Source of the DNA: Candidatus Multivoradales bacterium
GTDB lineage: Bacteria; Acidobacteriota; Thermoanaerobaculia; Multivoradales; JAHEKO01
NCBI GenBank assembly: GCA_965223855.1
Contig: CBDCXM010000009.1
Coordinates: 992,001 to 1,056,000 of the forward strand
Length of the DNA stretch: 64,000 bases
Direction: 5' to 3'
Shown here one piece after another: positions 2 to 51,840 of this stretch. The position numbers were made by a program, and so were the translations under genes. The notes below the pieces were generated by a model, which ran no database searches, was not told where the DNA came from, and saw only the letters and a program-made list of their open reading frames with translations. How positions within the stretch are numbered: the stretch's first letter is position 1; the number at the start of each line of letters is the position of its first letter.

Positions 2-3000
2 AACGGCAACGTCGTCACCCACACCTACGACGGCCTCGATCGACTCCTCGCCTCGGCGGACTCGCTGGGCCCGCTCACCGCCGCTACCTACGACGCGCGC
101 GGCAACCCGCTTGCCGAGAGCGACGCCAACGGCAACCTCACGACGAGCACCTGGGACGCGCTCGACCGGCTGGTCGAACAGGAGCTGCCGGAGGCGCGCA
201 CGCTGGCCTTCACCTGGGACGTCGCCGGCAACCGTCTCAGCGCCACCGACGCCCGTGGTGCCACCACCGGCTTCAGCTACGACACCCTCGACCGCCAGAT
301 CGAGATCACCCATCCGGAGACCGAGGGGGTCGTTTACATCGAGAGCTTCACCTGGGACGATGCCGGCAATCGCCTCACCGCCACCGACCGCCGGGGGCTG
401 ACGACGACGTTCGCCTACGACGACCTCGACCGTCTCGTCTCGGTCACCGATCCCGACCCGCTCGGCTTCGTCACCAGCTACGGCTACGACGCCGAGGGCA
501 ACCGCACCTCCGAGACCGACCGCCGCGGCATCCTCTCGCGCACCGACTACGACGCCGAGAATCGGCCCGTGCGGATCGAGCGCGACGGCCTGACGCTGCG
601 AACGATCGCCTACGACGCCGCCGGCAACCGGATCCTCGAAGTCGACGCCGAGGGGCGGCCGATCGAGTCGGCGTGGGACGAGCGCGACCTCCTCGTGGAG
701 ACTCGCTACCCGCTCGAGGACGAGGCGATGGCCTACGTGCTCGACGACCTCGGCGACCGGCTCGAGACGCGGGTCGGTGAGGGCGTGCCCGACACCACCG
801 TCTCGACCGCGACCTGGGACCTGCGCCGGCGGATGGAGAGCGAGACCAACGCCGTCGCCGAGACGACCGGCTACGAATACGACGGCAACGGCAACCGCAC
901 CGCCATGGTGCGCCCGAAGTCGACCCGCTGGGAGTACGACTTCGACGGCGCCGACCGGCTGGTGGCGGTGCGCGACCCGCTCGGCAACGAGACGACCTAC
1001 GGCTACGACGGCAACGGCAACCTCACCTCGCAGACCGACGCCGAGAACCGCACCACCACCTTCGCGTGGGATGCGCTCAACCGGCGCCTGCGGCGCACCT
1101 ATCCCGACAGCGCCTTCCGCACGGCGACCTGGGACGGCAACGGCAACCAGCTCTCGGCGACCGACGCTCTGGGCCGCACGACCACCTTCGGCTACGACGA
1201 GCTCAACCGGCTGACCACCACCGCCTACCCGTTGCCGAACCCGCCGACCGGCGACGACCTGGTGTCGATCACCACCACCTATGACGCCAACGGCAATCCG
1301 ACCGAGGTGGTCGAGAGCTACACCGGCGCCACCGGCACCCGCACCACCTCCCGCGCCTTCGACACCTTCGACCGGCTGACCGCGGTCACCGACGGCCACG
1401 GCGAGACGCTCGGCTACCAGTACACCGCGAGCGGCAACCGCGCCCGCCTCACCGATCCGGACGCGAAGGTCACCCGCTACGAGTACGACTCGAAGAACCG
1501 CACCACCCGGGTCGAGATCACCGGCTCGGGCACTACCGAGTACGCATGGCTGCCGACCGACGACCTCGCCGAGATCCGCTATCCGGAGGGCACCGTCGCC
1601 GCCTACGGCTACGACACCCCCGGCCGCGTGACCTCGATCGAGCACACCCGAGCCGCGGCGCTCGTCTCGCGCTTCGACTACGTCTACGACCCCAACGGCA
1701 ACCGCCTGACCCAGCGCGAGCAGCGTTTCGACGGCACCGACGAGCTGACCGGCTACACCTACGACGACGCCGATCGCCTCACCGAAGTCGCCTACCCCGA
1801 CCAGACCGTCACCCACACCTACGACGGCGTCTCCAACCGCCTCACCGAGACCACCGTCGATCCCGGCGGCACCACCACCGGCGACCTCAGCTACGCCTAC
1901 AACGACCGCCACCAGCTCACCGCCGTCACCGACCACCTCGATCCGACCGGCGACGTCGCCTGGACCTGGGACCCCAACGGCAACCAGACCTCGAAGACCG
2001 AGGGCGGCACTGCCACCACCACCTACACCTACGACCTCCGCGACCGCCTCATCGAGATCGCCAACGCCTCAGGCCTCCTCGGCCGCTACCGCTTCGACCA
2101 CCAGGGCCTGAGGATCTCGAAAGAAAGCGCCGCCGGAACCGAACACTTCGTCTGGGACGACCAGGCCCTCCTCCTCACCACCGACGCCACCGGCACCACC
2201 CGCGCCAAGCACAACTACGGCCCCAGAAACCTCCTCTCCGTCGAGAACGCCGGCGCCACCCGCTACTACCTCACCGACGTCCTCGGCTCCCCCTTCCAGA
2301 TCTCCAACGCCGACGGCTCCGTCGACACCTACCGCCAGTACGACGCCTGGGGCGAAGTGAGAAGCGAGGTCGTAGGAGACGCCGACCAGCGGTTTGGCTT
2401 CACGGGGTACCAGGCGGATGGGGAGAGCGGGTTGCTGTATGCGAAGGCGAGATTCTACGACGGGGCGGTGGGGCGGTTCGGGAGGGAGGATCCCTTTGAG
2501 GGTGAAGGGTTGGTGCCGCCTAGTCTTCATCGGTATTTGTATGGGTACGCGAATCCGGCCTTCTTCGTGGATCCCGACGGAAGGCAGGTCAAGTGGCAGA
2601 AGGAAGACGACATCCCCGAAGGGGTTCCCTATTTTGTAGTCGATCAGGAGATGGAGACCGGCGGATCCTTCGAGGTCTTCTTTAGTGCGGACCCTGGGGC
2701 GTGGAGCGAGGCAGATCCGATCTTGGACGGGTCCTTCTCAGCGGTTCGCGACAGGGCCAAAGAAAGACGCCACAAGGGGGTCGCTGTTGGACGAGAGACC
2801 TCGAAGAACCTGCTTGCTCAGTTGCCTGGGGTCGGACGTTTCTTCACCGAGAAAGTGGCTGAGGCCGCCGAGAGGGGGCGAAGCGCTCGGCAAAGTGCGA
2901 CTCGGCTCAACGCGACATTGGACCAGGGCCTTACTCGAAATCGCGGTGGGGACACAGAAAGCTATCTGGCAGCTTGGCAGAGATCAACGCTGGCGGACGT

Positions 3001-3628
3001 CAACCAAGGTACACAGGTTCTCAAGGAGTCGCGAGATGAAGCTGGCATAGTGGTGCGCGAGAGCGCCCGATCTCTGGGTGCGGCCATCGAGGCTGCAGAG
3101 CGCCTGAGCGTTCTCTCCCTTAGTCCTCGGGTCGCAGGCAGACTCTTCGCTGCCAGCCGGCTACGCGGCGTCAGGGGTCTTGGAAACACAGCAACGAGCC
3201 CGTGGCTAGAGGACTCGCGGGATGCCGTCGTGGCTCATCTCGAAGAGTTCAGAGAAGGTGCTTCCTACCTCGTGCCGGAGTCGACCTACGTCAATTGGAT
3301 CAAGGGAAAGAAGTCGATTGGAAGAGTAGACGGTCAGTTCGTGACCACAAGGGTAGCAATGGATCGATTGCTCTCCGATGCGAGGGGCAGAATAGGCGAA
3401 GTTAAACGCAAGCTCGGAATACCCGCCGACGCCTGGAACGAGCCCCTCTATCGAATCGATGTGGATAGCCCCCTGCTATTCAATGCTCGCTTACCCATGG
3501 GGGTCGAGTCAGGTGCCAACGACATGTTCCGATGGGGCGGGTACACTAGCGGCGGTCTCCCAGAAGCGGTGATCGACCAAGTTCCGAGCTGGGCAGTTTC
3601 TGTATCGGCGGTAGGAGTGCGACCATGA
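2..3628 (+). CDS. Rhs/YD-repeat polymorphic toxin, 5'-truncated by the window edge, with C-terminal toxin domain
   Basis: Frame open from base 2 and in frame with the 569..3628 ORF. Many YDxxGR/N repeats; Rhs core signature FGFTGYQAD..GLLYAKARFYD..GRF..EDP..RYLYGYANP..FVDPDG; variable, lower-GC C-terminus after ~2580. Confidence 0.95.
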   Translation, partial: NGNVVTHTYDGLDRLLASADSLGPLTAATYDARGNPLAESDANGNLTTSTWDALDRLVEQELPEARTLAFTWDVAGNRLSATDARGATTGFSYDTLDRQIEITHPETEGVVYIESFTWDDAGNRLTATDRRGLTTTFAYDDLDRLVSVTDPDPLGFVTSYGYDAEGNRTSETDRRGILSRTDYDAENRPVRIERDGLTLRTIAYDAAGNRILEVDAEGRPIESAWDERDLLVETRYPLEDEAMAYVLDDLGDRLETRVGEGVPDTTVSTATWDLRRRMESETNAVAETTGYEYDGNGNRTAMVRPKSTRWEYDFDGADRLVAVRDPLGNETTYGYDGNGNLTSQTDAENRTTTFAWDALNRRLRRTYPDSAFRTATWDGNGNQLSATDALGRTTTFGYDELNRLTTTAYPLPNPPTGDDLVSITTTYDANGNPTEVVESYTGATGTRTTSRAFDTFDRLTAVTDGHGETLGYQYTASGNRARLTDPDAKVTRYEYDSKNRTTRVEITGSGTTEYAWLPTDDLAEIRYPEGTVAAYGYDTPGRVTSIEHTRAAALVSRFDYVYDPNGNRLTQREQRFDGTDELTGYTYDDADRLTEVAYPDQTVTHTYDGVSNRLTETTVDPGGTTTGDLSYAYNDRHQLTAVTDHLDPTGDVAWTWDPNGNQTSKTEGGTATTTYTYDLRDRLIEIANASGLLGRYRFDHQGLRISKESAAGTEHFVWDDQALLLTTDATGTTRAKHNYGPRNLLSVENAGATRYYLTDVLGSPFQISNADGSVDTYRQYDAWGEVRSEVVGDADQRFGFTGYQADGESGLLYAKARFYDGAVGRFGREDPFEGEGLVPPSLHRYLYGYANPAFFVDPDGRQVKWQKEDDIPEGVPYFVVDQEMETGGSFEVFFSADPGAWSEADPILDGSFSAVRDRAKERRHKGVAVGRETSKNLLAQLPGVGRFFTEKVAEAAERGRSARQSATRLNATLDQGLTRNRGGDTESYLAAWQRSTLADVNQGTQVLKESRDEAGIVVRESARSLGAAIEAAERLSVLSLSPRVAGRLFAASRLRGVRGLGNTATSPWLEDSRDAVVAHLEEFREGASYLVPESTYVNWIKGKKSIGRVDGQFVTTRVAMDRLLSDARGRIGEVKRKLGIPADAWNEPLYRIDVDSPLLFNARLPMGVESGANDMFRWGGYTSGGLPEAVIDQVPSWAVSVSAVGVRP

Positions 3629-3888
3629 TTGAAGAAGTTGCGCGTGATGACGACCGGCTTTTTCGGTTGGTGAAACTCGAGGACGGGAATCTCCTGCTGA
3701 CAGTCGTGTGTGGAGGGATCGGGATGTACGAGACGCATCTCGTGCTGAGCTCGGAGGAAAGGCTGAATTGGGACGCGAACGGTGTGGCATTCCTCTCCCA
3801 GCTGGCTCGATGTATGTGCCAGAGCCAGAACATGTTCGGCAACAGACTGCTCAGACACCTACCTGAGGACGAGGCCTCGGCTGAATAG
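3625..3888 (+). CDS. putative cognate immunity protein (87 aa)
   Basis: ATGA overlap with the Rhs stop, AGGAG RBS, small size and position directly after the toxin. Confidence 0.75.
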   Translation: MIEEVARDDDRLFRLVKLEDGNLLLTVVCGGIGMYETHLVLSSEERLNWDANGVAFLSQLARCMCQSQNMFGNRLLRHLPEDEASAE

Positions 3889-3889
3889 T

Positions 3890-3932
3890 GCAGCGAGATA
3901 GAGGCAGCGAGATAGAGGCCGAGATAGAGGCC
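3890..3932. repeat. short tandem repeat (GCAGCGAGATAGAG)x2 + GCCGAGATAGAG-GCC
   Basis: Directly visible between the immunity gene stop and the left inverted repeat of the HUH element. Confidence 0.85.
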
Positions 3933-5129
3933 TCACAGGAATACTGAAGGACGCACGCTGCCGTAGCGGCTCGCGCCTCGTCCTCGCCGACCGCACCCGT
4001 TCTCCGACTCGGCAGCCTCTCGGAGCGCTTCGCAAGGGGCGTTGTCGAGCTTGTCGCCGCGACTCAGCGACCTCTCGGCAGTACTCCCGAGACACCCCTC
4101 CACGCCGCGACCGGCCGGCGCGCTTGGCGCCAACCGATCTGGCCTAGAGCGCGAACTCCTTCTAGGTCCTCAGCGGGAAGAAGCGCCCAGCCGGCAGAAA
4201 GCAGCCCGGCGGAAACTGCGCCGGCTTGCCTGCCTGCAGAGCTTCCGCAGCCCGGCGGTACTCGATCACGAACCACTGGTACGCTTCTTCCAGCGTCCTG
4301 CGAACGTTCCGGTCGATCGCATGGAACCTTGGAGCAGGTGTGCGCTGCGGGTCGCTCGAGGGGCGGTCGTGGGGGTCCTGCTTGAGGATGGCCTTCCTGC
4401 CCAGCACTTTGTGACCGTCCGTCTCCGCCTCGACCTCTCGCACGATCGAGCGAACGCGTGCCTGGCGCTGGGCCTCTGTCAGGTCACCCCAGGTCGGCAG
4501 CGGTGTGATCTCGAGTCGCTCTTCCTCGGTGAACTCGCGCTCGGGAGCTCGGTGCCCGCTCTCCCGAGCCCGGTACTGCGCAGTGCGGTCGATCCAGATA
4601 CCTTTGAGCTCTCGGCCTTCGGTCAATACCCGCAGGCTCGTGGCGCCGGGCCAGTGCCGGGGAGAAGCGACGAGCCGGTCCTTGCACCCCTGCGCGAGCA
4701 GGTAGCGCAGACGCTTCTCCGGCTGGGCCTCTTCCTCGCTCAGTTCGATGGCGGTGTAGCGGCGTTCGAAGATCCCTCCTCGCCAGTCGTGGATCCGGCC
4801 GAGTTCTTTGGCGATCTTGGACAGCGCGTAGCGCATGAAGTCGGCAAGCTGCTTTGAATCGTCGGGCCACAGGAGCAGGTGAGCGTGGTTCGAGAGGAAG
4901 ATGCAGTAGCAGACCTTCATGCCGTACTTGCGCTGGGCACGGGCCATCGCTCCGAGGATGACGGCATTCACCTTGGGCGAAGGGCGCAGCAGGAAGCGGC
5001 GCTGCACGGCGCGGGTCGTGACCTCGACGAGCCCAGGGCCGGCGAGGTGGCGAAGTCGGTAGCCCATCTCGTCTCTTCAGACGGAGGGTCCATCTGCATC
5101 CTTGCACTGGTCCTGCAGTATTCCTGTGA
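3933..5129 (-). mobile_element. putative HUH/Y1-transposase element bounded by 20-bp inverted repeats
   Basis: TCACAGGAATACTGAAGGAC (3933-3952) versus the reverse complement of 5110-5129, TCACAGGAATACTGCAGGAC (19/20); the pair encloses the transposase gene. Confidence 0.6.
4162..5067 (-). CDS. HUH (Y1) transposase, RAYT/IS200-like
   Basis: EVTTRAVQRRFLL N-terminus, CIFLSNHAHLLL HUH motif, FERRY, and YLLAQGCK..LVASP..WPG region typical of RAYT-like Y1 enzymes. Confidence 0.85.
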   Translation of the reverse strand: MGYRLRHLAGPGLVEVTTRAVQRRFLLRPSPKVNAVILGAMARAQRKYGMKVCYCIFLSNHAHLLLWPDDSKQLADFMRYALSKIAKELGRIHDWRGGIFERRYTAIELSEEEAQPEKRLRYLLAQGCKDRLVASPRHWPGATSLRVLTEGRELKGIWIDRTAQYRARESGHRAPEREFTEEERLEITPLPTWGDLTEAQRQARVRSIVREVEAETDGHKVLGRKAILKQDPHDRPSSDPQRTPAPRFHAIDRNVRRTLEEAYQWFVIEYRRAAEALQAGKPAQFPPGCFLPAGRFFPLRT

Positions 5130-5142
5130 CACCTACTTGACT

Positions 5143-5470
5143 GCGCCACCCGCTACTACCTCACCGATGTCCTCGGCTCCCCCTTCCAGATCTCCAACGC
5201 CGACGGCTCCGTCGACAGCTACCGCCAGTACGACGCCTGGGGCGAAGTGAGAAGCGAAGTCGTCGGCGACGCCGAGCAGCGGTTCGGGTTCACGGGATAC
5301 CAGGCGGATGGGGAGAGTGGGTTGCTGTATGCGAAGGCTCGGTTCTATGACGGGGCGGTGGGGCGGTTTGGTAGGGAGGATCCGTTCGAGGGTGGGGGGG
5401 TGGTGCCGCCGAGCTTGCACCGATACCTGTACGGGTACGCCAACCCTATTCGCAACGTCGATCCGAGTGG
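5143..5470 (+). repeat. diverged duplicate of the Rhs core tip (copy of ~2253-2580)
   Basis: GCGCCACCCGCTACTACCTCACCGA... begins at both 2253 and 5143 (offset 2890) and similarity continues to the DPxG motif. Confidence 0.95.
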
Positions 5471-6235
5471 AGAAGCAACGGTCAGTGTTCTTGGCTTCGA
5501 GTTCGAGGTTCCTGATGAGCTGGTCGACTTGGTCATTGCTGGCATCAACATCGCTACCGGAGCAGCGCAGGAGATCGACGACGATGTCGATCAGATCCGA
5601 GAAGTGTCTGAAGACCCAATAGCGCCTTTGCTCGATCTCGCAGGCAGAGCTCGTGAAGTGTCCGATCGCAGTCTTGAGGGTGCGCTAGATGCGACTGCTG
5701 CTCTGGTTGTAGAAGGGGCAGACGGTTTCCTTGAAGCTCGCCAAGGTCTCATTGAGAGTTCAAGTAGTCTCCTACGTTCGGAGCTGACGAGAACGGCAAG
5801 GTCGGTGCCCGTAGCCAATGCGCTTTCCCGCCTGGGGGATGCGCATGTGCTCGCGGTCGAAGGAAGCACCGGCGAAGCTCAGAGAGAGTTCGGCGCAGCT
5901 TTGGTCCAGGTGGGGCAGGACGCTATCGCGTTGTTCGGTCTTCGTGGTGCGATCCGAGGAGGGCAGACAAGCCGTGCGAGCGGACTAGGCCAGGCTAGCA
6001 GGTCTGACTCGCTGCTTGTGAACGGGCCAGGCGTCAACGTTACGGCGCGGGCGGATGCGCTGGCGTACAGGCAGATCATCGCCGGTGGTCGGCGAGGAGC
6101 GGGCACTCCCCTCACCGACCTTCGGGCTGTTGAGCGAGTGATCGGGAGAATTCCGGACGGCCCTCGCGTGACCATTACCACAGCACAAGCGGCGGCTCTT
6201 GAGGAGGCCTTGGGACTCCCAACAGGTCGGCTAGC

Positions 6236-7281
6236 TGTGGAGTCTCAAGACGTTGTTCAGTAGATGAGGTTGTCCATCCGAGCCTCTTCGTAGAGGCTTC
6301 CTGGTGTCAGACCAAGGAATCTTCAGAGGAGGAATCGGATGGACATGCATGAGAATGCCCGAAGCTGCCCTGCAAGTCGAGCGCTTCTCGTCAATCGAGT
6401 GCTGACTCAAGGTTGGTCTGTCGGCCAGGCCGCGGAGGCCATCGGAGTCTCGACACGGACCGGCTACAAGTGGCTGGCTCGCTACCGAGCCGAAGGCCGC
6501 AGTGGCCTGGCCGACCGCTCGAGTCGACCGCACCGCATCGCTCGATCCACCAGTGCTTTCCGGGTACGCCAGATCGTGAAGCTGCGTCGTCGGCGCATGT
6601 GCGGAGCCGAGATCGCCGCGCGACTCGGGATGCCTCGCTCGACCGTGGCACGGATCCTCAAGCGGGAAGGCCTGAATCGTCTCAAAGCCCTGGAGCCTCC
6701 AGAGCCGGTGGTGCGCTACGAGAAGGACCACCCTGGCGAGCTCGTGCACCTCGACATCAAGAAGCTCGGGAGGATCCGTGGGATCGGGCATCGGATCACC
6801 GGGAATCGACGCCACACGACGGCTGGAATCGGCTGGGAGTTTGTCCATGTCGCCATCGACGACGCGTCACGCCTTGCCTACGTGGAAGTCCTTCGCGACG
6901 AGCGCAAGGAGTCTGCAGTGGCCTTCCTCGAGAGAGCCGTAGCCTTCTACGAAAGCCACGGCATCCACGTCGAGCGCCTCATGACCGACAACGGGTCGTG
7001 CTACCGCTCCAAGCTCTTCGCCGACGAGCGTCGGCGGCTTGGTCTCAAGCACACCTTCACCCGGCCGTACCGGCCGAGGACCAATGGCAAGGCGGAGCGC
7101 TTCATCCAGACCTTGCTCAGAGAGTGGGCCTATCGCTTCCCCTACCGCTCTTCACGAGAGCGGACGAGACGACTCCAACGCTACCTGCACTTTTACAATC
7201 ACCATCGAATGCATCAGGCACTCCATGGACTACCGCCCATCAGCCGGCTACCCCGACTGAACAACGTCATGGGAATCCACA
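6236..7281 (+). mobile_element. IS481-family insertion sequence (1046 bp)
   Basis: Ends TGT...ACA; 25-bp terminal IRs TGTGGAGTCTCAAGACGTTGTTCAG / TGTGGATTCCCATGACGTTGTTCAG (22/25); 6-bp GCTAGC duplication at 6230-6235 and 7282-7287, matching the NCTAGN target of IS481. Confidence 0.95.
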
Positions 7282-7286
7282 GCTAG
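6339..7286 (+). CDS. IS481-family DDE transposase
   Basis: HTH N-terminus (HENAR..KWLARY..GLADRSSRP), PGELVHLDIKKLGRI, TDNG, PRTNGKAERF; the stop codon is supplied by the target TAG. Confidence 0.96.
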   Translation: MDMHENARSCPASRALLVNRVLTQGWSVGQAAEAIGVSTRTGYKWLARYRAEGRSGLADRSSRPHRIARSTSAFRVRQIVKLRRRRMCGAEIAARLGMPRSTVARILKREGLNRLKALEPPEPVVRYEKDHPGELVHLDIKKLGRIRGIGHRITGNRRHTTAGIGWEFVHVAIDDASRLAYVEVLRDERKESAVAFLERAVAFYESHGIHVERLMTDNGSCYRSKLFADERRRLGLKHTFTRPYRPRTNGKAERFIQTLLREWAYRFPYRSSRERTRRLQRYLHFYNHHRMHQALHGLPPISRLPRLNNVMGIHS

Positions 7287-7478
7287 CAGGCGGGGCGGTA
7301 CTCTCTGTCGTGGATGATGTTCAGATGCGAGCACCGCGCTCGCCCTTGGCGGGCAACGACCTGTTCCTGGGGCGAGGGAGAGGCCTGCCAGGAGGGGGAC
7401 CAGAGATCAACGTTGCCCCGATTAGCACCGCAGGCGGAGGTGGGGTACGACAGGTGATTGTGGACGTTGAGTGAAGAG

Positions 7479-7961
7479 ATGATCTTGACCGGAGAGGTTG
7501 AACCGGTAGAGAGACGAGGTTGGAGTCGTCAGTGTCCGGGTTGTCACGAGACAGTCCGGTTCACCGTACTCAATCTCAATACAGGGGTTGAGCCGTTCTT
7601 GTACTGCGATGGCGGATCCGATCTGCTCCTGCGGGAGGAGGATAGGTTGGCGCTGGCTCAGCTCGGTTCCCCCTCAGAGGCGCCCTCGCTTGAGGTCGTG
7701 CGAGCCTTCTATGAGGATCTCGAAGACAGGCTTCCCTCGTGCCCGCTCGGTGGTCGGTTTGGTGTTTGGGCCAACGCAAGGTGTCGCCATTGCGGGCGAG
7801 GCTTGCTTGGGTCTATTGCGAGAAGAGACGAGCACCTCAGGTTCTTTGAGACGAAGCTAGTTTGGCTGGAGGGAACGACAGTTTTCAGGGGGGCAAGCCT
7901 CCCTAGTAGTCGGTTGGACAAGGTCCGCGTCAGCCTCCGAGGAGAAATGCCGGGTGAGTAG
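7479..7961 (+). CDS. putative immunity protein for the orphan toxin (Cys-rich, CxxC motifs)
   Basis: Immediately follows the restored orphan-toxin stop; CPGC, CP and CRHC motifs; start could be TTG 7467 or ATG 7479. Confidence 0.65.
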   Translation: MILTGEVEPVERRGWSRQCPGCHETVRFTVLNLNTGVEPFLYCDGGSDLLLREEDRLALAQLGSPSEAPSLEVVRAFYEDLEDRLPSCPLGGRFGVWANARCRHCGRGLLGSIARRDEHLRFFETKLVWLEGTTVFRGASLPSSRLDKVRVSLRGEMPGE

Positions 7962-8051
7962 CGCCCCGGAGGAGGAGGAGAGGTGCCAACAGATCTCTGT
8001 CGACGTGGTTGGGGGCGGCATCACCCAGGTGCGCAAGTTCCGCCTATGTGA

Positions 8052-8558
8052 GTGGATCAAGAAATAGTGATCATGGGTAACTCGGAGTTGGTCATTCCAG
8101 CATTCAGGGAGTTTCTGGAGGAAGCAGAGAGGGCTTTCAAACTTCTCGCCCAACGATTCGATTTCGAGTCAGAGCGGTCAGTTCATGGTCGAGAAGCATC
8201 CTTCCTGCTCACCAAGAAGCAGCGCCTGAATCTCCGTGTTTTCTTCGAGCCGTTCACGAGTCCGTGGCTGGAAGTGGTCGGAGTCCGTCGACAAGGTCTC
8301 GTTGTTCGGACTACCTTTGAAAGGCTCCTAGGTGAGTCGCAGCGTGCGAGTACGCCACTTAGATTGACCGATCCTGACAACCCGGATCGAGCTGGCTTCA
8401 AAGTTCTCCTGACGGCTTGGGCACAAGTGTTCGCCGATAGCTTTGAAGGGCTTCTCAATGCGGAAGAGGGCGTTGGAGACATGCTAGCGGCCCTCCGCGA
8501 CCGTGGGGGGCAGTTGCCCCTTTCCCTTCCGGAGGGAGGAGAGGTGCCGGGTGAATAG
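8052..8558 (+). CDS. hypothetical protein, probable orphan immunity
   Basis: Lower-GC ORF in the immunity array. Confidence 0.55.
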   Translation: MDQEIVIMGNSELVIPAFREFLEEAERAFKLLAQRFDFESERSVHGREASFLLTKKQRLNLRVFFEPFTSPWLEVVGVRRQGLVVRTTFERLLGESQRASTPLRLTDPDNPDRAGFKVLLTAWAQVFADSFEGLLNAEEGVGDMLAALRDRGGQLPLSLPEGGEVPGE

Positions 8559-8871
8559 TGCAGTAGAAGTTGATATCGACGCTGCGCTAGCTGAAGCACT
8601 CGTCTTCTGGACGGGATGGAAGCGTACTCATAGCCCCTCCAGAGATAAGACCGAGTTTGTCAGCAAGTTTGGGCCGCGAGTTGCCGACGAACTACTACCT
8701 CGTGTGCGGCGCTTGGAAGAGGTGTTCTACAGCTCGGACGCCAGATACAAGGCCGCGAGCTTGACGGAGCTGGCTGAGCGATCGGCAGCGGATTCTCGCG
8801 AGAAGCTACCCGAGACCCCAAGGGAAGTCACAATGGCTTTGGCCTGGTGCTACGCCTTCGATTTCAAGTAG
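8551..8871 (+). CDS. hypothetical protein, probable orphan immunity
   Basis: GTG start with GGAGAGG RBS overlapping the previous stop; helical protein ending ALAWCYAFDFK. Confidence 0.6.
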   Translation: MNSAVEVDIDAALAEALVFWTGWKRTHSPSRDKTEFVSKFGPRVADELLPRVRRLEEVFYSSDARYKAASLTELAERSAADSREKLPETPREVTMALAWCYAFDFK

Positions 8872-8976
8872 GGCTTCCGCGACTCGTGCCCCCACCGAGA
8901 AGGGGTGCCGGCCGACTAGTGCAAGATTCGCTGCCTCGGTAGCACGCTCCGCCCATTGGCATGCTGAAATAGCGCC

Positions 8977-9726
8977 ATGTCACATTCCGGTGTAATCCTC
9001 GCCAGGCTCGACTTGCGTCCCGTCTTCGCTGTGCTCGCGGTTGTGCTCGTGTCGGCCGTGATCTGGTCCCTGCTCGACAACGACTCCGCGGAGGACTCGA
9101 TCGAGGAGCCAACCGGCGGCCCCGCTGCCGTCGGTGACCCTGAGGCAGAGAAGGAGCGGCTTCGCGCCAGGATCTTCGCACTCGAAGGAGAGCTTCAGGC
9201 GGTGGCGGATCGGTTGACGGCTGCGCGCATCCCTCCCTCCGAGGATGTCTTCGAGACGATCCGGGAGATCGACCGCATCGCTCGGAGTCGAAACGAGGAG
9301 AGGGACTTTCGACGCTTCGGTGGGCTCGAGGACCTCGACCGGGAGCTGTCTCGCCTGCAGGAACACGAGGGGATGCTCGAGGCTGCGCTGATGCGACTCC
9401 GCAAGCGACTGCCGAGGCCCAGGGCCGAGACCGAGGCCGAGCCGACGGCTCTGGTGCGAAGCCGCTCAGTGGTGGCGGGACGACTGAGGCTCTCGATTCG
9501 GGTCTCGAATCCGGCGCCCGTCGTCATCTACCCGACGCTGGAGATCTTCGCTCACAGATGCTCCGAGTCGCTGGAGGCGCTGGGTCCGGAGATCTCTCTG
9601 GGTACGACGACACTGCTGGTCGAGAGCGGGTCGGGCCGGTCACAGGACCTCGAGTTCGATGACCCTGCGCCGGCAGAGGACGAGGTGCCCTGTCGGTTCC
9701 GAATCGAGATCCTGAGTCAGGACTGA
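8977..9726 (+). CDS. membrane-anchored coiled-coil hypothetical protein
   Basis: N-terminal TM helix, E/R-rich coiled coil, beta-rich C-terminus. Confidence 0.6.
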   Translation: MSHSGVILARLDLRPVFAVLAVVLVSAVIWSLLDNDSAEDSIEEPTGGPAAVGDPEAEKERLRARIFALEGELQAVADRLTAARIPPSEDVFETIREIDRIARSRNEERDFRRFGGLEDLDRELSRLQEHEGMLEAALMRLRKRLPRPRAETEAEPTALVRSRSVVAGRLRLSIRVSNPAPVVIYPTLEIFAHRCSESLEALGPEISLGTTTLLVESGSGRSQDLEFDDPAPAEDEVPCRFRIEILSQD

Positions 9727-9769
9727 GGGGTGAGTAGAGCATTGTCGAAGAGGTACCGTAGGCCTCGTC

Positions 9770-9967
9770 ATGCCAGTCGATCGCGAAGACTCGCGGAACT
9801 GGACGTTCCATGCCGAAGAGGTCTCCGTGGGCGCCTACCTGGTTACGGCCAACAATCTCGATGGGCACCAAGTCGAGGTGACGGGGACCGACCTGGACGA
9901 AGTGGTCTCCAGGTGCAAGGAGGCTGCGCGAGATATGGATGAGGCATCTCGCGAGCATCGGTCGTGA
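9770..9967 (+). CDS. small hypothetical protein (65 aa)
   Basis: ATG with GAGG upstream; GTGA overlap with the next gene. Confidence 0.55.
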   Translation: MPVDREDSRNWTFHAEEVSVGAYLVTANNLDGHQVEVTGTDLDEVVSRCKEAARDMDEASREHRS

Positions 9968-10392
9968 GCAAGGATCCTCGTCCGGCGCTGTTGTTCCTCC
10001 TTGCAGTCGTCGCGGTCGGGCTCGGTTGGATAGCCCTGAGGTCGAGCGACGACCTCCAGGAGGCCGATGCCGAGACCGAGGCTCTGGAGCTTCGCAAGCA
10101 AGCCACCCGCGACGAAATCGCGGAGCTGGAGCGCGAGTTGCAGCTCCTGGCCGATGACCTCGATCTGGGGGACGGCATCAAGCCCGGCGAGATCGATCTG
10201 AGGATTCTGGAAGTCGCTCGGGCGGCGACCCGTCGGGCGAGCAGTTGGGATCCGGCCAAGCACTCGGGCGACGGTGTGATCGACGTCGAGCTGCTCGCCC
10301 TGCTCGAGCAGAGGAGGATGCTGGAAGAGGCCAGGGAGCGGTTGGGGCGAAAGGCAGAGGTCCCCGAAGGGAAGCCTGGGATGCCCGAGTAG
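9964..10392 (+). CDS. membrane-anchored coiled-coil hypothetical protein
   Basis: N-terminal TM helix followed by a coiled coil. Confidence 0.55.
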   Translation: MSKDPRPALLFLLAVVAVGLGWIALRSSDDLQEADAETEALELRKQATRDEIAELERELQLLADDLDLGDGIKPGEIDLRILEVARAATRRASSWDPAKHSGDGVIDVELLALLEQRRMLEEARERLGRKAEVPEGKPGMPE

Positions 10393-10698
10393 CACGGCCT
10401 GGAGCTTCTCCGCGGCTTCGCAGCGCTACGAATTGCCAGTTTGCGGCGGAACGCGCTCTCGACGTACCTTCCGGCGAGGCCGATTCGGCAGGGCCTGCGC
10501 TTTACGAGGGCAGGCGGCTGCAAGATCGGCGAGTCGAGTTCCGTCTGAAGTTGCGAGACGGCGTTACCATCGCCGCAAGCAACTCAGTCCGACTTCCGAT
10601 CCGCCCCGGTGCACCCGGCAGAGCCGAGTGCGCAACGAGCCCGCTGAAATATGCTGGAATAGCGCTATGTCACAGTTCGCTGTCGAGGTTCCCCGCTC

Positions 10699-13600
10699 TT
10701 GAACGGGCGTGATCGAGCACCGGCCGGCCCTGCCGTTCGTTGTCTGCTGGCGGTTGCGGTCGCGGTGCAGCTCGGGGGCGCGCCACTCGTCTACCCCGAG
10801 TCGGCCGCCCCGGAATCGGCCGACTCAGGGAAGGCCGCCTCGGAGATCAAGCCCTTCTCGGCAGCGGAACGACGCGCGGTCGAGCTGGCGGCGCTCTACC
10901 TGGAGGGCGGCGCGGAAGCACTGGCGGGAGAGTTCGCCGAAGGCAGCTCCTGGAGCGCGCTTTCGGAGGCCGGTCGCCGGCTCGAGATCGAGACGCGGCT
11001 CGGCCCCGTGGCGGCTGCACATTGGACTCTGCTGACGCCTTCGGGAGCGATCGGCGAGCACCTCGCCGGCTTCGAGGTGGCCTTTCCTTCCGGCGCCGAA
11101 GACGTCGTCGAGTTCGCCCTGCTCGAAGAACGGGGCGTCTGGAAGCTCGACCGGATCGTCTCGAGTGTCGAAGCGCGGCCGGAGCCGATCTCTTTCGAGG
11201 AGCTGTTTGCCGGCGCTGCGGCGGAGGACTCCGACGCGATGTGGCCGGCGCCGTCAGCCGATCGCGGCCCGCCCTGGTGGCTGGCCCTGCTGATCCTCGC
11301 ATGCGCTCTGTGGACTGCCGGGAACGGAAGGAGAGCCCTGCGCCCGGCGGTTGGGCTCCTCTCGGGGGCGCTGCTCGCCCTGATTGCCCCAGCCTGCAAG
11401 GAGGCGCCGGAGGAAGTCGACGCCGCTCCCGAGCTCGAGCTACTCGCCGCCGCGCGCGACGCTCGATGGACGACCGCGGGAGCCGCCGTGGCAACCATCG
11501 CCAAGCCACCACCGGCGAGTGCTGCCGAGCGCGCCGACCGGATTTGGCAGGCGGAGCGGGCGCTGGCGCGCAGCGACTTCGAGACGGTGGAGCAGTTGCT
11601 GTCTCTCTTCCCGGAGCCGAGCGTGGTGCCGAAGGTCGAGGAGCTGCGCGGCGAGCTCGCCCTCCTGGAGCGCGATGCCGACTCCGCCATCGCAGCCTTC
11701 GAGCGGCGGCGTGATCTCGGGCTCGCCTACGACAGCGTCACCTACGACCTGGCCATCGCCAAGGCGGGCCTGGGCCAGCCGGAGGCGGCCACCGCGACGA
11801 TTCAGCTCATGGCAGAGGTCGGGTCGCGGTTCGCCTGGCCGCACTACGCGGTCGCCAAGCTGGCGCTGGCCGATGAGGACGAGGAGGGGGCGCTGGCAGC
11901 CTTCGAGCGCGCCTGGCAGCTCGGGCCGATGAGCTGGCAAGAGACCTTCCAGGACCCGACCCTCACGGCCATCGTCGGGCGGCCCGAGCTCTTCGACACC
12001 CTGCGCCTCGACCGCAGCAGCGAGCCCGTCGTCCTCGCTCCGGAGGCGGGCGCGAGCGCCGTGCCGCTCCCCGAGTCGGGTGACTACCGGACGTACGGCA
12101 GCTACCTCGTGGCGCGGCTCGGCGGGGCGGCCCTTCATGTGCCGAACGGCGCGGAACTGGGGCCGGACGACGCGCTGCCCCAGCCTGCGGGATCGCTGGA
12201 GACTCAGGTTCAGGAGGAGGCGCTCGAACGGGTGACGGCCGGGCTCGAGGAGGGCCGCCCGTTCTCGGAGATGGAGCACCTGGTCGAGCTCGCCGCCAGC
12301 GGCCTCTACCGCGACGGGAAGTGGGACGAGGTCGTCGACCTGACCGGTCGGCTCGACGTCGGCCTCGAGCGTGGCTCGCCGATCCTGGTGTGGCTGCGGG
12401 CGTTCTCGATGGCGAAGATCGGTGACGACGAAGCGGCGCGGGCGATGCTGCTCGAGGTCGCACAGCGCGATGTCGGCACCGGTCACCTGAGCCCGATCCA
12501 CCTGTCACAGCTCGCGGAGCTCCTTGCCGAGCGCGACGCCTACGACCAGGCGGTCCGAGTGCTGGCGAAGGCGAATGCGATGTACCCGTCGCCGACACTC
12601 GAGACGCGGATCCGGCAGCTGCGCCTCGAAGGCCGATTGCAGAGTTCCTACCGGACGCTCCGCACGAAGCACTTCGAGCTGCGCTATCCGGAGGGCACCG
12701 ATCCGAGCCATTCGGAGGCGCTGGGGAAGGTGCTCGAGGCCGAGCGGGTGCGGATCCGTCGATGGGTGCCGGCCGAGGCGGCGGGTCGGGTCGGGGTCGA
12801 TCTCTTCCCTCTCGGCTCGTTCCTCTCGACCTTCGGCGAAGGGGGCGTGATCGGTCTCTTCGACGGCCGGGTGCGGGTGCCGCTGGCAGACCTCTACAGC
12901 CTGCACCCGAGCCTCGTCGCCATCCTGTCGCACGAGCTGGCACACGCGCTGATCGACCGGCGCTCTGCCGGCAGGGCGCCGAAGTGGTTCCACGAGGGGG
13001 TGGCGATGCACGTCCAGATGGTCGATCAACCGACCAATCCGCTGCCGGAGCTCGCGGGCAAGAACCGGATCTTCTCGCTCAAGGCGCTCGAGGCGGTGCT
13101 CGCCGGGATGAGCGACCCGAGCTTCAATCAGGCCGCCTACACCCAGGCGGCGTGGCTGGCGCACTTCATCGAGGCGCGCTTCGGCCGGCGCACGCTCGAC
13201 GAGCTGATGCTCGCCTTCTCACGCGGGCTCGACACCGAGGGCGCCATCGGTGCGGTCACCGGACTGGAGGTGGCGCAGTTCGAGCAGCAGTTCCGAGACT
13301 GGGGGGTGACTCGTGCCCCGCTGACCTGGGACACCGAGGTGCGGCGCTACGACCGCGAGCAGGAACGGGAGCGTAGGCTCGAGGCGTTCGAGCGCGACAA
13401 GCTCATCCAACCCTCGACCCGCTCACGCCGCCAACCTGAGCGGGAGCGACGCCGGGTCACCGTAGACGAGGATTTGCGGCGGCGGATGCACGCCTGGCAC
13501 GCCGGGTACGCGGAGACGGTGCGCGACGTCAAGCTGCGGCTCAAGCCGGTCCTCGAGATGCTCGACGGACGGCGCAACTCCGGGAACCTCGGTACGTCGT

Positions 13601-13830
13601 GTCGTGCGCTCGAGACCTCGCTTCGCCACGCGATGAGTCGCGACCACTTCACCTCCTCTCCGGACCCGCAGGTGAACTCGGCGCTGCGCACTTCGTTCTC
13701 GACCTTCCTCAAGGCGAGCCAGGCGTGCCAGCGCGGCGCTCTGCAGTCGACCCGTCAACGTATCGCCGAGGCAGACCGCAGCCTGGCGAAAGCGGCGGCG
13801 AGACTCGGGATCTACGGCCTCGCGCCGTAG
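10699..13830 (+). CDS. large membrane TPR protein with zincin (peptidase MA-like) domain
   Basis: Signal/TM segments, TPR-like helices, ILSHELAHA..PKWFHEGVA zinc motif. Confidence 0.8.
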   Translation: MNGRDRAPAGPAVRCLLAVAVAVQLGGAPLVYPESAAPESADSGKAASEIKPFSAAERRAVELAALYLEGGAEALAGEFAEGSSWSALSEAGRRLEIETRLGPVAAAHWTLLTPSGAIGEHLAGFEVAFPSGAEDVVEFALLEERGVWKLDRIVSSVEARPEPISFEELFAGAAAEDSDAMWPAPSADRGPPWWLALLILACALWTAGNGRRALRPAVGLLSGALLALIAPACKEAPEEVDAAPELELLAAARDARWTTAGAAVATIAKPPPASAAERADRIWQAERALARSDFETVEQLLSLFPEPSVVPKVEELRGELALLERDADSAIAAFERRRDLGLAYDSVTYDLAIAKAGLGQPEAATATIQLMAEVGSRFAWPHYAVAKLALADEDEEGALAAFERAWQLGPMSWQETFQDPTLTAIVGRPELFDTLRLDRSSEPVVLAPEAGASAVPLPESGDYRTYGSYLVARLGGAALHVPNGAELGPDDALPQPAGSLETQVQEEALERVTAGLEEGRPFSEMEHLVELAASGLYRDGKWDEVVDLTGRLDVGLERGSPILVWLRAFSMAKIGDDEAARAMLLEVAQRDVGTGHLSPIHLSQLAELLAERDAYDQAVRVLAKANAMYPSPTLETRIRQLRLEGRLQSSYRTLRTKHFELRYPEGTDPSHSEALGKVLEAERVRIRRWVPAEAAGRVGVDLFPLGSFLSTFGEGGVIGLFDGRVRVPLADLYSLHPSLVAILSHELAHALIDRRSAGRAPKWFHEGVAMHVQMVDQPTNPLPELAGKNRIFSLKALEAVLAGMSDPSFNQAAYTQAAWLAHFIEARFGRRTLDELMLAFSRGLDTEGAIGAVTGLEVAQFEQQFRDWGVTRAPLTWDTEVRRYDREQERERRLEAFERDKLIQPSTRSRRQPERERRRVTVDEDLRRRMHAWHAGYAETVRDVKLRLKPVLEMLDGRRNSGNLGTSCRALETSLRHAMSRDHFTSSPDPQVNSALRTSFSTFLKASQACQRGALQSTRQRIAEADRSLAKAAARLGIYGLAP

Positions 13831-13891
13831 AGTGGGTGATCTTGTCAGCGACGAATTGTTGACTCCCAAGCTCCTCCACCAGGCAAGAAGT

Positions 13892-16060
13892 ATGGAAACC
13901 ATGTCCTATCTCCCTCTGGCGATCCTCGGCCTCTGGCTGCTCCTCTCCGTCTACTACCTTCAGGCCTCTCGGAAGCCGGAGACCAATGGCAAGGCCGCGC
14001 TCGGCCTGGGTGGGTTCTTTGCCGCTCTGGGTGTCTTCGCTGTAGCCGATGCTCTGAGCGACCTGCCGAGTCGGGTCGCTCGGGGTCTCGGGGTGGCAGT
14101 TTCGGGCATCGGATGCGTCGGGCTGCTGGTGGCGTTGGCTCTCGCCGTCTGGGGCCTGGTGGAGATCAGGAGGGCGCCAGACCGCTGGAGTCGAGGTCGG
14201 GGAATGGCATGGTGGGCGGTGGCACTCTCGGCCGTTCTGGGCCTTGTCCTCGCCAGCGTGGCCCTGCAGAGCATCTCGTCGAGTCTGAAGCTCCGAGAAG
14301 CCGCCACCGAAGGTACTCCTGCGGGGCCGGTCGTCGTCGAGAGTCTCAATTTCTCGGTGACGGTCGATCGGCCGTGGCAGCAGCTCAGCAGGGCCGCGGA
14401 CGTGTCCGAAGATGCTGCGGTCGCCTTCCTCCGTGCCGATCCGGCGCAGTATTTCATGGTGATCGCAGAGGCGTACGAGGCCCCCCTGACCCTCTATGCG
14501 GACGTGGTTCTAGCCAACGCGGCGGCAGTTGCCGATTCAGTGGAGGAGATCTCCAGATCCAGTCTCGAGCTGAGCGGCCTGGAAGGGCTCGGACTCGAAG
14601 CGACGGTCGTCATGGAGGGTAGGAGTTTCGACTTCCTTTACGGGCTGGTCGTTCACAACGGTTTCGCCTACCAGTTGATCTCGTGGAGCGACTCGACTCC
14701 CAATCGCGAACCGCTGAGCGCGCGGGCGATGGAGGTCTTTGCCAGTTTCGAGATCCTGGATCCGGACCGTCAGGCGGAGCTTCCGGAGGTCGAGCCGTAC
14801 CGATCTCCCTACGGCTTCTCTGTCGAGGCGCTCGAGGGTTGGTCGGATTGGTCGTCGCTCGGAGACGAGATCCCAGCGGCCGATTTCGGAGCGTTGTCTT
14901 CGAGGGGGGAGGCTCTTGTCGTTTTGCCTTTGCTGCTCCCTGACAGTCGCGTTACCGACAGGGATCTGCTCAGGGCTCTCCTCGGAGAACTCAACGTGGA
15001 CCTGGAGTCGGTGAATGTCGCTTCCCAGCAGGTCAGCAGCGACAGCGTGACCAGCGGCTTCGACCTGCAGTTCCGGGACGAGGTGGACGGGACCGCCTTC
15101 CAGAATGTGGCCCGTCTTCGGCGAACTTCGCGAATGGCCTACCTGTCGGCAGCGTGGCACGAAGAAGCGTTGGACCCCGACCTTGACCGGCTCACCGGGT
15201 TGCTGGATTTCGTCCGACTCGAGGGCGAGATCTCCTACCGTGCGGCGTCGGAGATCTCTGATGAAGCGGAGAGAGCGGGCCACGCGCGCATCTACCGGGC
15301 ATTGGCCGGACTACTTGAGTCCAGAGGCCTCGATGATGAGGCCGGAACTCTCTTCCGGGAGGCTTTCGAGCTGGATCCAGAGAAGGTCGATAGCATCGTC
15401 GCCTATCTTTCCTTCCTCGACAGACAGGGAGATTCCGAGGTCGGGCTGCGATTCTTCGAGGAGGTCCTATCGGACTTCGATAGTCCCGAGCTGGTGCAGT
15501 CCTTCTACCCGTACTTCCTGGCCCGCGAAGGTCGACTCGAAGAGGCCGCCGGGAGCTACTCCGATCTCTTCGCCGACGGCTGGCGAAGCGACAGCGACTT
15601 TGAGCTCTACCTCGATCTCCTCTGGCAGATGGGCAGGACCGGCGAGGCGGTTGCGCGCGCCTCTAGTTATCACGAGGCCGGAGGCAACGCGCTCTCGAAG
15701 GTGCTTCTGGCCTCGGCGCTGAGACAGGCCGGCGACGTCGAGGAGGCACTGGAGCTCCTCGCCGGCGACTCACCTGAGGCGCTCCCGCTGAATCCTCGCC
15801 ACGCCAGGGAGCTGATCCACTGTCACTACGACGCGGGCCATCACGACCTGGTGTTGGCGCTGACGGAGCAGAGTGCCTTCAACAATGGCCCCGATGCCCC
15901 TACCCTGGTCCTCCAGGGGAAAAGCGAGGCCGCTCTCCAGCGCTTCGACGAAGCGATCCGATCGTTCGAGCAGGCGCTCGAGCTCGATCCCTTCCACGGA
16001 GGGGCAGCCGAGGAGCTCGGTGCCGTCCGCTCCATTCTCGCCGCCGGTCGGGAATTGTAG
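13892..16060 (+). CDS. membrane protein with 4 N-terminal TMs, PsbP-like central domains and C-terminal TPRs
   Basis: TM helices ending in RGRGMAWWAV (DUF4190-like); TPR motifs such as EAIRSFEQALELDP. Confidence 0.7.
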   Translation: METMSYLPLAILGLWLLLSVYYLQASRKPETNGKAALGLGGFFAALGVFAVADALSDLPSRVARGLGVAVSGIGCVGLLVALALAVWGLVEIRRAPDRWSRGRGMAWWAVALSAVLGLVLASVALQSISSSLKLREAATEGTPAGPVVVESLNFSVTVDRPWQQLSRAADVSEDAAVAFLRADPAQYFMVIAEAYEAPLTLYADVVLANAAAVADSVEEISRSSLELSGLEGLGLEATVVMEGRSFDFLYGLVVHNGFAYQLISWSDSTPNREPLSARAMEVFASFEILDPDRQAELPEVEPYRSPYGFSVEALEGWSDWSSLGDEIPAADFGALSSRGEALVVLPLLLPDSRVTDRDLLRALLGELNVDLESVNVASQQVSSDSVTSGFDLQFRDEVDGTAFQNVARLRRTSRMAYLSAAWHEEALDPDLDRLTGLLDFVRLEGEISYRAASEISDEAERAGHARIYRALAGLLESRGLDDEAGTLFREAFELDPEKVDSIVAYLSFLDRQGDSEVGLRFFEEVLSDFDSPELVQSFYPYFLAREGRLEEAAGSYSDLFADGWRSDSDFELYLDLLWQMGRTGEAVARASSYHEAGGNALSKVLLASALRQAGDVEEALELLAGDSPEALPLNPRHARELIHCHYDAGHHDLVLALTEQSAFNNGPDAPTLVLQGKSEAALQRFDEAIRSFEQALELDPFHGGAAEELGAVRSILAAGREL

Positions 16061-16161
16061 GACCCACCTCGAGCGACGGCTCTGACTCGGATCCGGCAGA
16101 ATGCAACCTTCCTGCTCGTTCGCTCGTTCGTAGGGCAGACGCACCAACCAGGAGGTCCCCG

Positions 16162-17670: not shown

Positions 17671-17688
17671 TTACCGCGCCACCAGGGT

Positions 17689-17719
17689 GCCCTGAGCCCG
17701 TATCCCTCGGGCTCAGGGC
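17689..17719. terminator. 12-bp perfect stem-loop between convergent genes
   Basis: GCCCTGAGCCCG-TATCCCT-CGGGCTCAGGGC; no U-tract. Confidence 0.5.
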
Positions 17720-50862: not shown

Positions 50863-50899
50863 GCCGCTCCCGTGTGCACGCTGTCAGGATGCTGAGGCG

Positions 50900-51622: not shown

Positions 51623-51643
51623 GTAGGTGTCACAGGAATACTG
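51623..51643 (+). repeat. 21-bp exact copy of the HUH-element end (reverse complement of 5116-5136)
   Basis: GTAGGTGTCACAGGAATACTG at both loci. Confidence 0.9.
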
Positions 51644-51840
51644 GAGTACTGCACTCGTTGAGGAGCGAAATCGGCTGACGGTCAGGCCCCATCTGGAGCT
51701 CGCTTGGGAGTAGGTGCCATCGGGGGGAACGGGTGTCCGCAACCACCGAACCCATGAAGTAGGAAGAGGCCTGGGGCCGCCGCGGCCGCTCAGAACTTCG
51801 GGGGTCTGGCGCCGTCGGATCTGCTGCGAGGTCCTGTCTG

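Follow-up and report, generated by a model that had tools for sequence, protein, structure and literature searches.

A recurrent 23-bp motif closing the immunity modules of an Rhs toxin locus in an acidobacterial genome: a possible diverged end repeat of a Y1-HUH transposase element

Polymorphic toxin genes of the Rhs type can be followed by arrays of immunity genes, and here we describe such a locus in a 64,000-nucleotide stretch of DNA (referred to throughout as the window) from a Candidatus Multivoradales bacterium of the Acidobacteriota (contig CBDCXM010000009.1, positions 992,001 to 1,056,000), in which a short DNA motif lies at the 3' end of every module. The window opens inside the Rhs locus and, from 5' to 3', its modules incorporate; 1) the main Rhs gene, whose conserved core ends at about 2552 and is followed by a variable C-terminal toxin tip (CT1, about 2576 to 3628), together with imm1; 2) an orphan rhs fragment with a second toxin tip (CT2), together with imm2; 3) imm3; and, 4) imm4 (Table 1). 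A Y1-HUH transposase element lies between the first and second modules. The first 300 nt of the orphan fragment (5143-5442; Rhs_assc_core E 1e-18) are a core remnant, matching the last part of the main core (2253-2552) at 90% identity, and the locus has the layout of Rhs C-terminal displacement, with a main rhs gene followed by a fragment that repeats the core end and brings a new toxin tip and immunity gene. GC content falls after 2500 and rises again after 8925, being 0.53-0.62 in the toxin tips and immunity genes versus 0.67-0.73 in the flanks, while GC at third codon positions (GC3) is 0.57-0.69 in imm1 to imm4 versus roughly 0.8-0.9 in most other genes of the window. From their position directly behind toxin tips we infer that imm1 and imm2 are immunity genes, and imm3 and imm4 are putative immunity genes, named for their place in the array.

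Table 1. Features of the locus and of related loci (window positions, unless a related locus is named; c1 to c4, copies of the motif)
Feature	Position	Strand	Remarks
Main Rhs/YD-repeat toxin gene, 3' part	2..3628	+	5' end beyond the window; RHS_repeat E 1e-91, Rhs_assc_core E 1e-16
imm1, 87 aa	3625..3888	+	Overlaps the rhs stop (ATGA); last 5 codons and stop inside c1
Motif copy c1	3871..3893	+	Conserved stretch about 3857-3897; matches the neighbouring IR-L at 17/23
Three tandem 12-14-nt units (CGAGATAGAGGC)	3890..3932	+	Join c1 to IR-L; Tandem Repeats Finder 3.1 copies, 92-93% matches
Y1-HUH element, about 1.2 kb	3928-5134		Encloses the transposase gene (4162-5067, -); bounded by 25-nt inverted repeats
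IR-L, left terminal inverted repeat	3928..3952	+	25 nt, 88% complementary to IR-R
Internal inverted repeat-like copy, degenerate	4076..4098	-	15-17/23 to the three terminal repeats
Y1-HUH tyrosine transposase, 301 aa, TIRYT/RAYT-like	4162..5067	-	REP_Tyr_transpos E 9.8e-10 (below cut-off), Y1_Tnp E 0.008
IR-R, right terminal inverted repeat	5110..5134	-	Orphan rhs homology begins 8 nt on
Orphan rhs fragment	5143..7474	+	Core remnant, then CT2; starts 8 nt after IR-R
IS481-family element splitting CT2	~6230-7287		Transposase 6339-7286, transpos_IS481 E 4e-98
imm2, 160 aa, four-Cys protein	7479..7961 (ORF 7458-7961)	+	Last 9 residues are the motif tail
Motif copy c2	7944..7966	+	End of imm2
Half copy c2' (left half)	7966..7990	+	In tandem with c2; 7974-7987 is an exact 14-mer of c3
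imm3, 161 aa	8073..8558 (ORF 8052-8558)	+	Follows imm2
Motif copy c3	8541..8563	+	Contains the imm3 stop and the imm4 GTG start (8551)
imm4, 106 aa	8551..8871	+	GTG start 8551 inside c3
Motif copy c4	8902..8924	+	33 nt past the imm4 stop, in frame with imm4; GC rises beyond
Possible right-half copy	9726..9742	+	Just after the stop of gene 8977-9726; exact 10-mer GGGTGAGTAG in common with c2
Solo terminal-repeat copy	51625..51649	+	23/25 to IR-R; 47 kb from the element
Related locus L011: two HUH genes, 43% identical to the window's	12135-15146		114-nt tandem end units from the immunity gene's stop
Related locus L017: Y1_Tnp gene (E 1e-8) between inverted repeats	11894-13957		End copies start about 10 nt past the immunity stop
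Related locus L018: three HUH copies and one fragment	12017-18378
Related locus L045: three 97%-identical HUH copies, 33-53-nt inverted repeats	12220-19836		Four tandem solo ends

An earlier reading of this DNA from its letters alone (the original prediction) had reported the four 23-mers, with 19, 17 and 18 identities between c1, c2 and c4, respectively, and c3, and both the coordinates and the counts proved exact. A repeat search of the window recovers the four copies as one 27-nt direct-repeat family, and in a scan of both strands with a position weight matrix built from them, which had been proposed as a check on the prediction, they score 27.5-36.1 bits with the next best position at 11.5. 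By plain identity to c3 the other copies reach 19, 18 and 17, followed by three positions at 16 and seven at 15, and when 52 gene ends were compared in a stop-anchored manner (1326 pairs) the top three pairs (19, 18 and 17) were all motif pairs, the best unrelated pair having 16. A looser criterion, a 23-mer that finds at least three others matching it at 17/23 or more within 5.5 kb, yields 17-32 positions per dinucleotide shuffle and far more in real coding sequence than in shuffles; it is uninformative, and what makes the motif significant is thus the higher level of identity, together with the position at gene ends that the copies share. The ease with which such loose criteria are reached would fit a chance resemblance among the gene ends of a GC-rich genome, as would the fact that TAG, the stop codon within the motif, is common here and in no way special (28 of the 54 called genes end in it). 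However, the rank of the motif pairs among the stop-anchored comparisons, the gap from 27.5 to 11.5 bits in the profile scan and the location of all four copies on one strand within 5 kb make this explanation hardly credible.

The motif closes all of the modules: each of the four has a copy at its end, and no copy separates a toxin from its own immunity gene. The genes imm1 to imm4 are all on the plus strand and closely spaced, each either ending in the motif or having it behind, and both edges of the motif are sharp in all four copies. As had been predicted, three open reading frames (ORFs; 3625-3888, 7458-7961 and 8052-8558) terminate at the TAG of the motif, which gives them the similar tails EASAE, EMPGE and EVPGE. 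The TAG of c4 shares the reading frame of imm4, and in that frame the 15 codons separating them have a GC3 of 0.87, versus 0.73 and 0.53 in the other frames; judged from this composition, the 45 nt ahead of c4 look like an in-frame remnant of a native gene end. A weaker copy proposed at 9720-9742 does match c3 at 15/23 and its right half shares an exact 10-mer with c2, but it ties with six other positions and has an nhmmer E of 120, and it is listed here as a possible right-half copy. Neither promoter-like nor terminator-like sites coincide with the motif, and no known RNA family (Rfam, E <= 1) was found in 3000-11500.

For comparison we used 64 related loci, picked by Rhs similarity only from a scan of 185,579 species genomes. 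The closest Rhs relatives are in metagenome-assembled genomes (MAGs) of Thermoanaerobaculia and other Acidobacteriota and reach at most 54% identity, and thus the species of the window is absent from that collection. In the 64 loci the ungapped motif profile scored 15.8 bits at most, nhmmer gave nothing below E 3.6 and blastn-short returned merely chance 12-mers. An apparent copy at the end of an immunity gene in L014 (E=82) was dropped, as were likenesses in L021 and L023 that were within noise, and a stop-anchored comparison over all stop-to-stop frames of these loci was too noisy to use, being dominated by Rhs repeats and large duplications.

The four proteins that carry or precede the motif are mutually unrelated except for the tail, as judged by blastp and as had been claimed. 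A word-indexed protein search found no relatives of imm1, imm3 and imm4 beyond the window's own proteins, the sole match of imm1 in a set of 5.8 billion proteins was itself, and none of imm1 to imm4 can be placed in a Pfam or NCBIfam family at E <= 0.1, weak zinc-ribbon matches aside. For imm2 there are 54 representative homologues (clusters) among 1.84 billion proteins, forming an unnamed family of about 150 aa with four cysteines, whose longer members give no informative Pfam family. When imm2 was aligned with 20 homologues the homology stopped at KVRV and the nine-residue tail was present in none of the 20. An AlphaFold2 model of imm2 (predicted local distance difference test, pLDDT, 91; predicted template modelling score 0.85), whose fold has no match in the PDB at E <= 0.001, shows the tail as coil, with the last block having the lowest pLDDT of the protein (65). 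Moreover, 7 of the codon differences between the tails and c3 are non-synonymous and 2 are synonymous. That the motif is conserved as DNA and not as protein, as the original prediction held, is supported because of this excess of non-synonymous differences and because the tail is missing from all 20 aligned imm2 homologues. Conservation of the tail as protein is ruled out by these homologues, by the unstructured tail of the model and by the mostly non-synonymous differences.

These data also bear on the idea that the motif is kept for a function at the junction of two genes, either translational coupling, for which it would offer termination in two frames, a stretch resembling a Shine-Dalgarno sequence and a GTG from which the next gene can start, or some role of the tail peptide. 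The GTG in c3 is indeed the start of imm4 as this protein is recorded in the protein collection (the 106-aa form starting at 8551), purine-rich GGAGG-like runs lie ahead of all copies, and a GTG is found in c2 and c3, which have an immunity gene next, and is missing from c1 and c4, which have none. However, the GTG in c2 opens merely a 37-codon frame, the conservation runs past the start and stop codons into TGCAG, which would be superfluous for coupling, and the tail shows the lack of protein-level constraint described above, so that we regard a functional junction as very unlikely. The 37-codon frame (7954-8067) ends 5 nt before the ATG of imm3 and could be a relay for translational coupling or the remnant of a lost gene.

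The second component of the locus is the Y1-HUH element that follows the first module. In its transposase the residues N60, H61, H63, L64 and Y122, which make up the HUH motif and the catalytic tyrosine, are invariant in five aligned proteins. Its neighbours in a protein atlas are Y1_Tnp clusters that are commonest in Acidobacteriota, and a search against PDB sequences gave no meaningful match. The terminal repeat of the element has three matches in the window against none expected, namely IR-L, IR-R and a solo copy, remote from any toxin locus, which sits 11 nt beyond the stop codon of an unrelated gene for a MarR-like regulator (50861-51613). The tetranucleotide GTAG precedes both IR-R and the solo copy. 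The degenerate copy at 4076 scores 13.7-14.3 bits with the repeat profile and is the top minus-strand match after IR-R, and the tandem 12-14-nt units that join c1 to IR-L are read here as probable truncated copies of the element's end. Folding of the three terminal-repeat copies is not significant compared with shuffles (z -1.07, +0.64 and +0.85), REPIN-like folding of 3920-4105 gives a z of 0.00, and in the 64 related loci the terminal repeat has no match above 17/25.

The original prediction had linked the motif to the neighbouring HUH enzyme, and this link gains statistical support from a resemblance between the motif and the terminal repeat of the element, with c2 as an exception. Among 127,776 non-motif positions the motif profile puts IR-R in 4th, IR-L in 15th and the solo copy in 22nd place, and the score of the 4076 copy (9.8 bits) is the second-best value in the ranked list. 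In the reverse direction, a profile made of IR-R and the solo copy only, IR-L being left out since it adjoins c1, ranks c3 2nd, c1 6th and c4 67th of about 127,700 positions, all at zero shift. When the columns of the repeat profile were permuted (n=5000) the best observed score at the four sites was reached in 1 of 5000 permutations and the second best in none. The likeness resides mainly in the right half (GAATA.TG.AG, 9-10/12), together with AGGTG.C on the left, and identity to the terminal repeats is 13-17/23 for c1, c3 and c4 and 8-10/23 for c2. The copy c1 is a mosaic, its first 8 bases being those of IR-L and its last 12 those of c3, and the copies of the motif share blocks in a mosaic pattern. 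On this basis the motif is likely, although not proven, to be related to the terminal repeat.

The related loci show a similar arrangement, since the succession of an immunity-gene stop, tandem end copies and an HUH gene recurs in 4 of the 64 (Table 1). In L017 a segment of 900 nt is bracketed by two 100%-identical 37-nt copies of the right end, and two further loci, L012 and L013, contain weak HUH matches. The immunity-gene stop, the run of end copies and the HUH gene may be read as one structure.

We propose that the motif is a diverged solitary end repeat of a Y1-HUH tyrosine-transposase element flanked by terminal inverted repeats (TIRs), an element of the kind known as a TIRtron, and that it bounds the modules and is a site of recombination, an explanation to which we would give about an even chance of being correct. 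Its source would best be read as either the element in the window or a sister element elsewhere in the genome. The steps envisaged are as follows; 1) such elements carry tandem or scattered additional copies of one end; 2) end copies, all in one orientation, would come to lie where each module, be it toxin-immunity or immunity-only, ends on its 3' side, so that the immunity genes run into the repeat, and three of them consequently take their last codons and TAG from it; 3) the copies being direct repeats, each module is bracketed by copies, and modules could be inserted between them, and lost between them, by recombination at the repeat; and, 4) modules might enter by the action of the HUH enzyme, by ordinary recombination between the 30-odd-nt repeats, or by arriving with the repeat already attached. 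This proposal is favoured because the half copy c2' stands in tandem with c2, as in the end arrays of the relatives, and because the tail is foreign to the imm2 family and lies outside the folded part of imm2. The tandem half copy after c2 and the mosaic c1 and c3 also suggest exchange between copies. What the data show directly is the family of repeats, the placement of its members at module ends, their likeness to the element's end repeat and the recurrence of this architecture in relatives; from these we infer that the HUH enzyme deposited the copies and that the array was built through recombination between or at them, whether catalysed by the enzyme or carried out by the homologous recombination of the host.

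Another possibility is that the motif is a scar of recombination, a piece of an ancestral immunity-gene end or junction that was carried along, or served as the 3' homology, in Rhs C-terminal displacement, its likeness to the terminal repeat then being a coincidence. The 90% identity of the orphan core remnant to the main core, the low GC and GC3 of the modules and the stretch before c4 that resembles a native gene end would all be consistent with this, as would the published model of such arrays, in which an upstream homologous anchor is combined with an illegitimate 3' joint (PMC5361080, in the portion available). However, that model predicts no common 3' sequence and the available portion of the paper reports that no specific sites were found; in addition the edges of the motif are sharp in all copies and the likeness to the terminal repeat survives column permutation (1/5000). 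A scar of this type is therefore unlikely, if still worth keeping in mind.

A further explanation goes beyond our proposal, in that the HUH transposase would cut and join single-stranded DNA at the motif and the terminal repeats, and so capture, excise and insert immunity cassettes as an active system. The similarity of the motif to the terminal repeat, its presence at all module ends and absence from toxin-immunity boundaries, the L017 segment bracketed by identical end copies, the several HUH copies in the Rhs 3' regions of the four related loci and the blocks shared in a mosaic pattern are all compatible with such activity. Y1 enzymes of the IS200/IS605 and REP systems recognise hairpins, yet there is no hairpin in the motif or in the terminal repeats (z -1.07 to +1.29); moreover, there is a single HUH gene here, from whose end repeats the motif differs at 6-15 of 23 positions. 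An active cassette system is thus doubtful. The same low standing is appropriate for the general claim that a TIRYT-kind Y1-HUH transposase uses copies of its own end repeat to capture and shuffle immunity cassettes behind Rhs genes in Acidobacteriota, integron-like without an integrase, which we consider improbable.

Several observations weigh against a derivation of the motif from the element's end. The copy c2 has no likeness to the terminal repeat (8-10/23; rank 2548-3665), and if c1 is left out of the motif profile the ranks drop to 15 for IR-R, 81 for the solo copy and 445 for IR-L, while in the plain identity scan against c3 two unrelated positions do as well as IR-R (16/23). The motif has a conserved 5' extension (CC.GAGGA) that is missing from the terminal repeats, which in turn have a conserved 3' part missing from the motif, and c2, c3 and c4 have neither an inverted partner nor an accompanying HUH gene. 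Neither the motif nor the terminal repeat of the window is found in the 64 related loci, which have no comparative bearing on the motif itself, and the end repeats of the closest HUH relative (L011) show no convincing match. The evidence comes from one genome, in which no gain or loss of a cassette at the motif was seen. Finally, insertion sequences accumulate downstream of rhs genes anyway, and the co-location of the HUH element may be passive. If the repeats are passive they would be ordinary transposon-end debris in a recombination-prone locus, the curiosity being that this debris supplies the stop codons of three genes.

The original prediction compared the array to an integron. Integron cassettes are moved by the integrase IntI at attC sites, which are imperfect palindromes with a GTTRRRY core, and each cassette carries this short site at its 3' end, with the cassettes co-oriented and the site sometimes overlapping the stop. 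The locus is integron-like in that its modules are co-oriented and each is closed on its 3' side by a short site, overlapping the stop in three, but in the strict sense the analogy fails, as the window has no IntI and the motif copies neither fold as palindromes nor contain a GTTRRRY core. Among the 11 + 38 window ORFs scanned there is neither an integrase nor a tyrosine recombinase, the DNA upstream of rhs being outside the window, and the four 23-mers contain no GTT. The small hairpins that had been noted ahead of several copies are present in folds, but the fold energies equal those of shuffles (85-nt single-stranded folds round six copies, z -0.38 to +1.29), and there is no attC-like imperfect-palindrome folding.

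Closer parallels are found among elements with tyrosine transposases, and the statement that no description of such a motif was known has to be modified accordingly: related repeat systems, the TIRtron families (PMC3733652) and the integron-like repeats of rAID-1 (10.1101/471110), are described. TIRtrons consist of tyrosine-transposase (TIRYT) genes flanked by TIRs that are unrelated to REPs (Di Nocera et al. 2013, PMC3733652, as far as the available text goes), and the same text describes TIR repeat families that occur as singles, dimers and clusters, mostly downstream of coding regions, with a distinct group in Acidobacteria. The element in the window is similar, with a Y1-HUH gene between 25-nt inverted repeats and further copies that are single (51625) and internal (4076). 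The lack of hairpin folding in its repeats and in the motif fits a class unrelated to REPs, and c4 fits the GGGGWSAS TIR motif given in that text at 7 of 8 positions. The motif differs from the published TIRs in being a probable diverged sub-family that overlaps stops and closes successive Rhs immunity modules, and the available part of PMC3733652 reports no link to toxin-immunity arrays. In REP/REPIN-RAYT systems a domesticated IS200-like Y1 transposase is likewise accompanied by short dispersed repeats near gene ends (PMC5581495, PMC3337134, both in part). REPs, however, form palindromic hairpins tagged with GTAG, and most RAYTs are single-copy (PMC5581495, available portion), whereas there is no hairpin here and the relatives have two to three HUH gene copies per locus (one to three across the four loci).

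Other comparisons concern the arrays themselves. The rAID-1 arrays of Bacteroidales (Ross et al., 10.1101/471110, as available in part) have a XerD-family recombinase at the head of an orphan immunity array and repeats that were called integron-reminiscent; they resemble the present locus in their co-oriented orphan immunity genes, atypical GC and intervening repetitive sequences, but here there is no XerD-type recombinase in the window, the neighbour is an HUH transposase, the phylum is another and the array lies behind an Rhs toxin gene. In the available text of Kirchberger et al. 2017 (PMC5361080) orphan immunity arrays are ascribed to sequential displacement, and that of Zhang et al. 2012 (PMC3482391) notes XerC/D genes beside polyimmunity loci. 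As in those loci, there is a main toxin gene, an orphan fragment with a core remnant and orphan immunity genes, in modules that appear horizontally acquired, but no common 3' motif is reported in the parts of the two papers to which we had access.

Rolling-circle HUH elements of the IS91/ISCR type capture adjacent genes through one-ended transposition. An HUH enzyme with arrays of captured genes by the ends of an element is what they have in common with this locus, but they belong to another HUH class with other ends, and the comparison is merely a lead. We found no literature linking such tyrosine transposases to Rhs or immunity arrays, subscription journals being outside the coverage of the search, and the one preprint that contains both topics treats them separately. 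The accumulation of orphan immunity genes behind polymorphic toxin genes has been ascribed to an upstream homologous anchor combined with an illegitimate 3' joint (PMC5361080) or to neighbouring Xer-type recombinases (PMC3482391; 10.1101/471110); if our proposal is right, a repeat at every module end, tied to a recurring transposon, would be a concrete molecular handle on the assembly of such arrays and would point to a possible function for TIR-flanked tyrosine transposases.

Some further features of the locus and its relatives can be recorded. The IS481-family element that splits CT2 has 32-nt inverted repeats (6230-6261 and 7256-7287, 91% complementary) with GCTAGC at both flanks; IS481 elements have a CTAG target preference, and these flanks fit such a target. 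In L023, a Thermoanaerobaculia MAG, 10488-15211 is syntenic with 2576-13830 of the window, and about 1.2 kb separates a sequence distantly related to CT1 from a gene homologous to the large one at 10699-13830 (36% over 772 aa), versus about 7 kb of modules between CT1 and the large gene in the window; the toxin tip in L023 looks degraded, being split across several frames. In L001, a Pseudomonadales MAG, a 112-nt repeat with 100% identity (13973-14084 and 15897-16008) ends two ORFs downstream of an Rhs gene, starting at the TGA stop of both, and the first of these ORFs is an orphan Rhs fragment. Beyond the array in the window, a 33-nt direct repeat (8961-8993 and 10651-10683, 85% identical) brackets the genes 8977-9726, 9770-9967 and 9964-10392. 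Its first copy contains the start codon of gene 8977 and its second opens merely an 11-codon frame, and a relation of this repeat to the terminal repeat through TGTCACA was rejected as not significant (5 found versus 3.0 expected). Genes 8977 and 9964 form a pair of paralogues (29% over 140 aa, E 1e-9), each encoding a hydrophobic stretch at the N-terminus. Elsewhere in the window, and unrelated to the array, are a caspase-like protein of the EACC1-associated type (40324-42243, E 4e-16) and a Doc-family toxin gene (47272-47817, E 4e-13).

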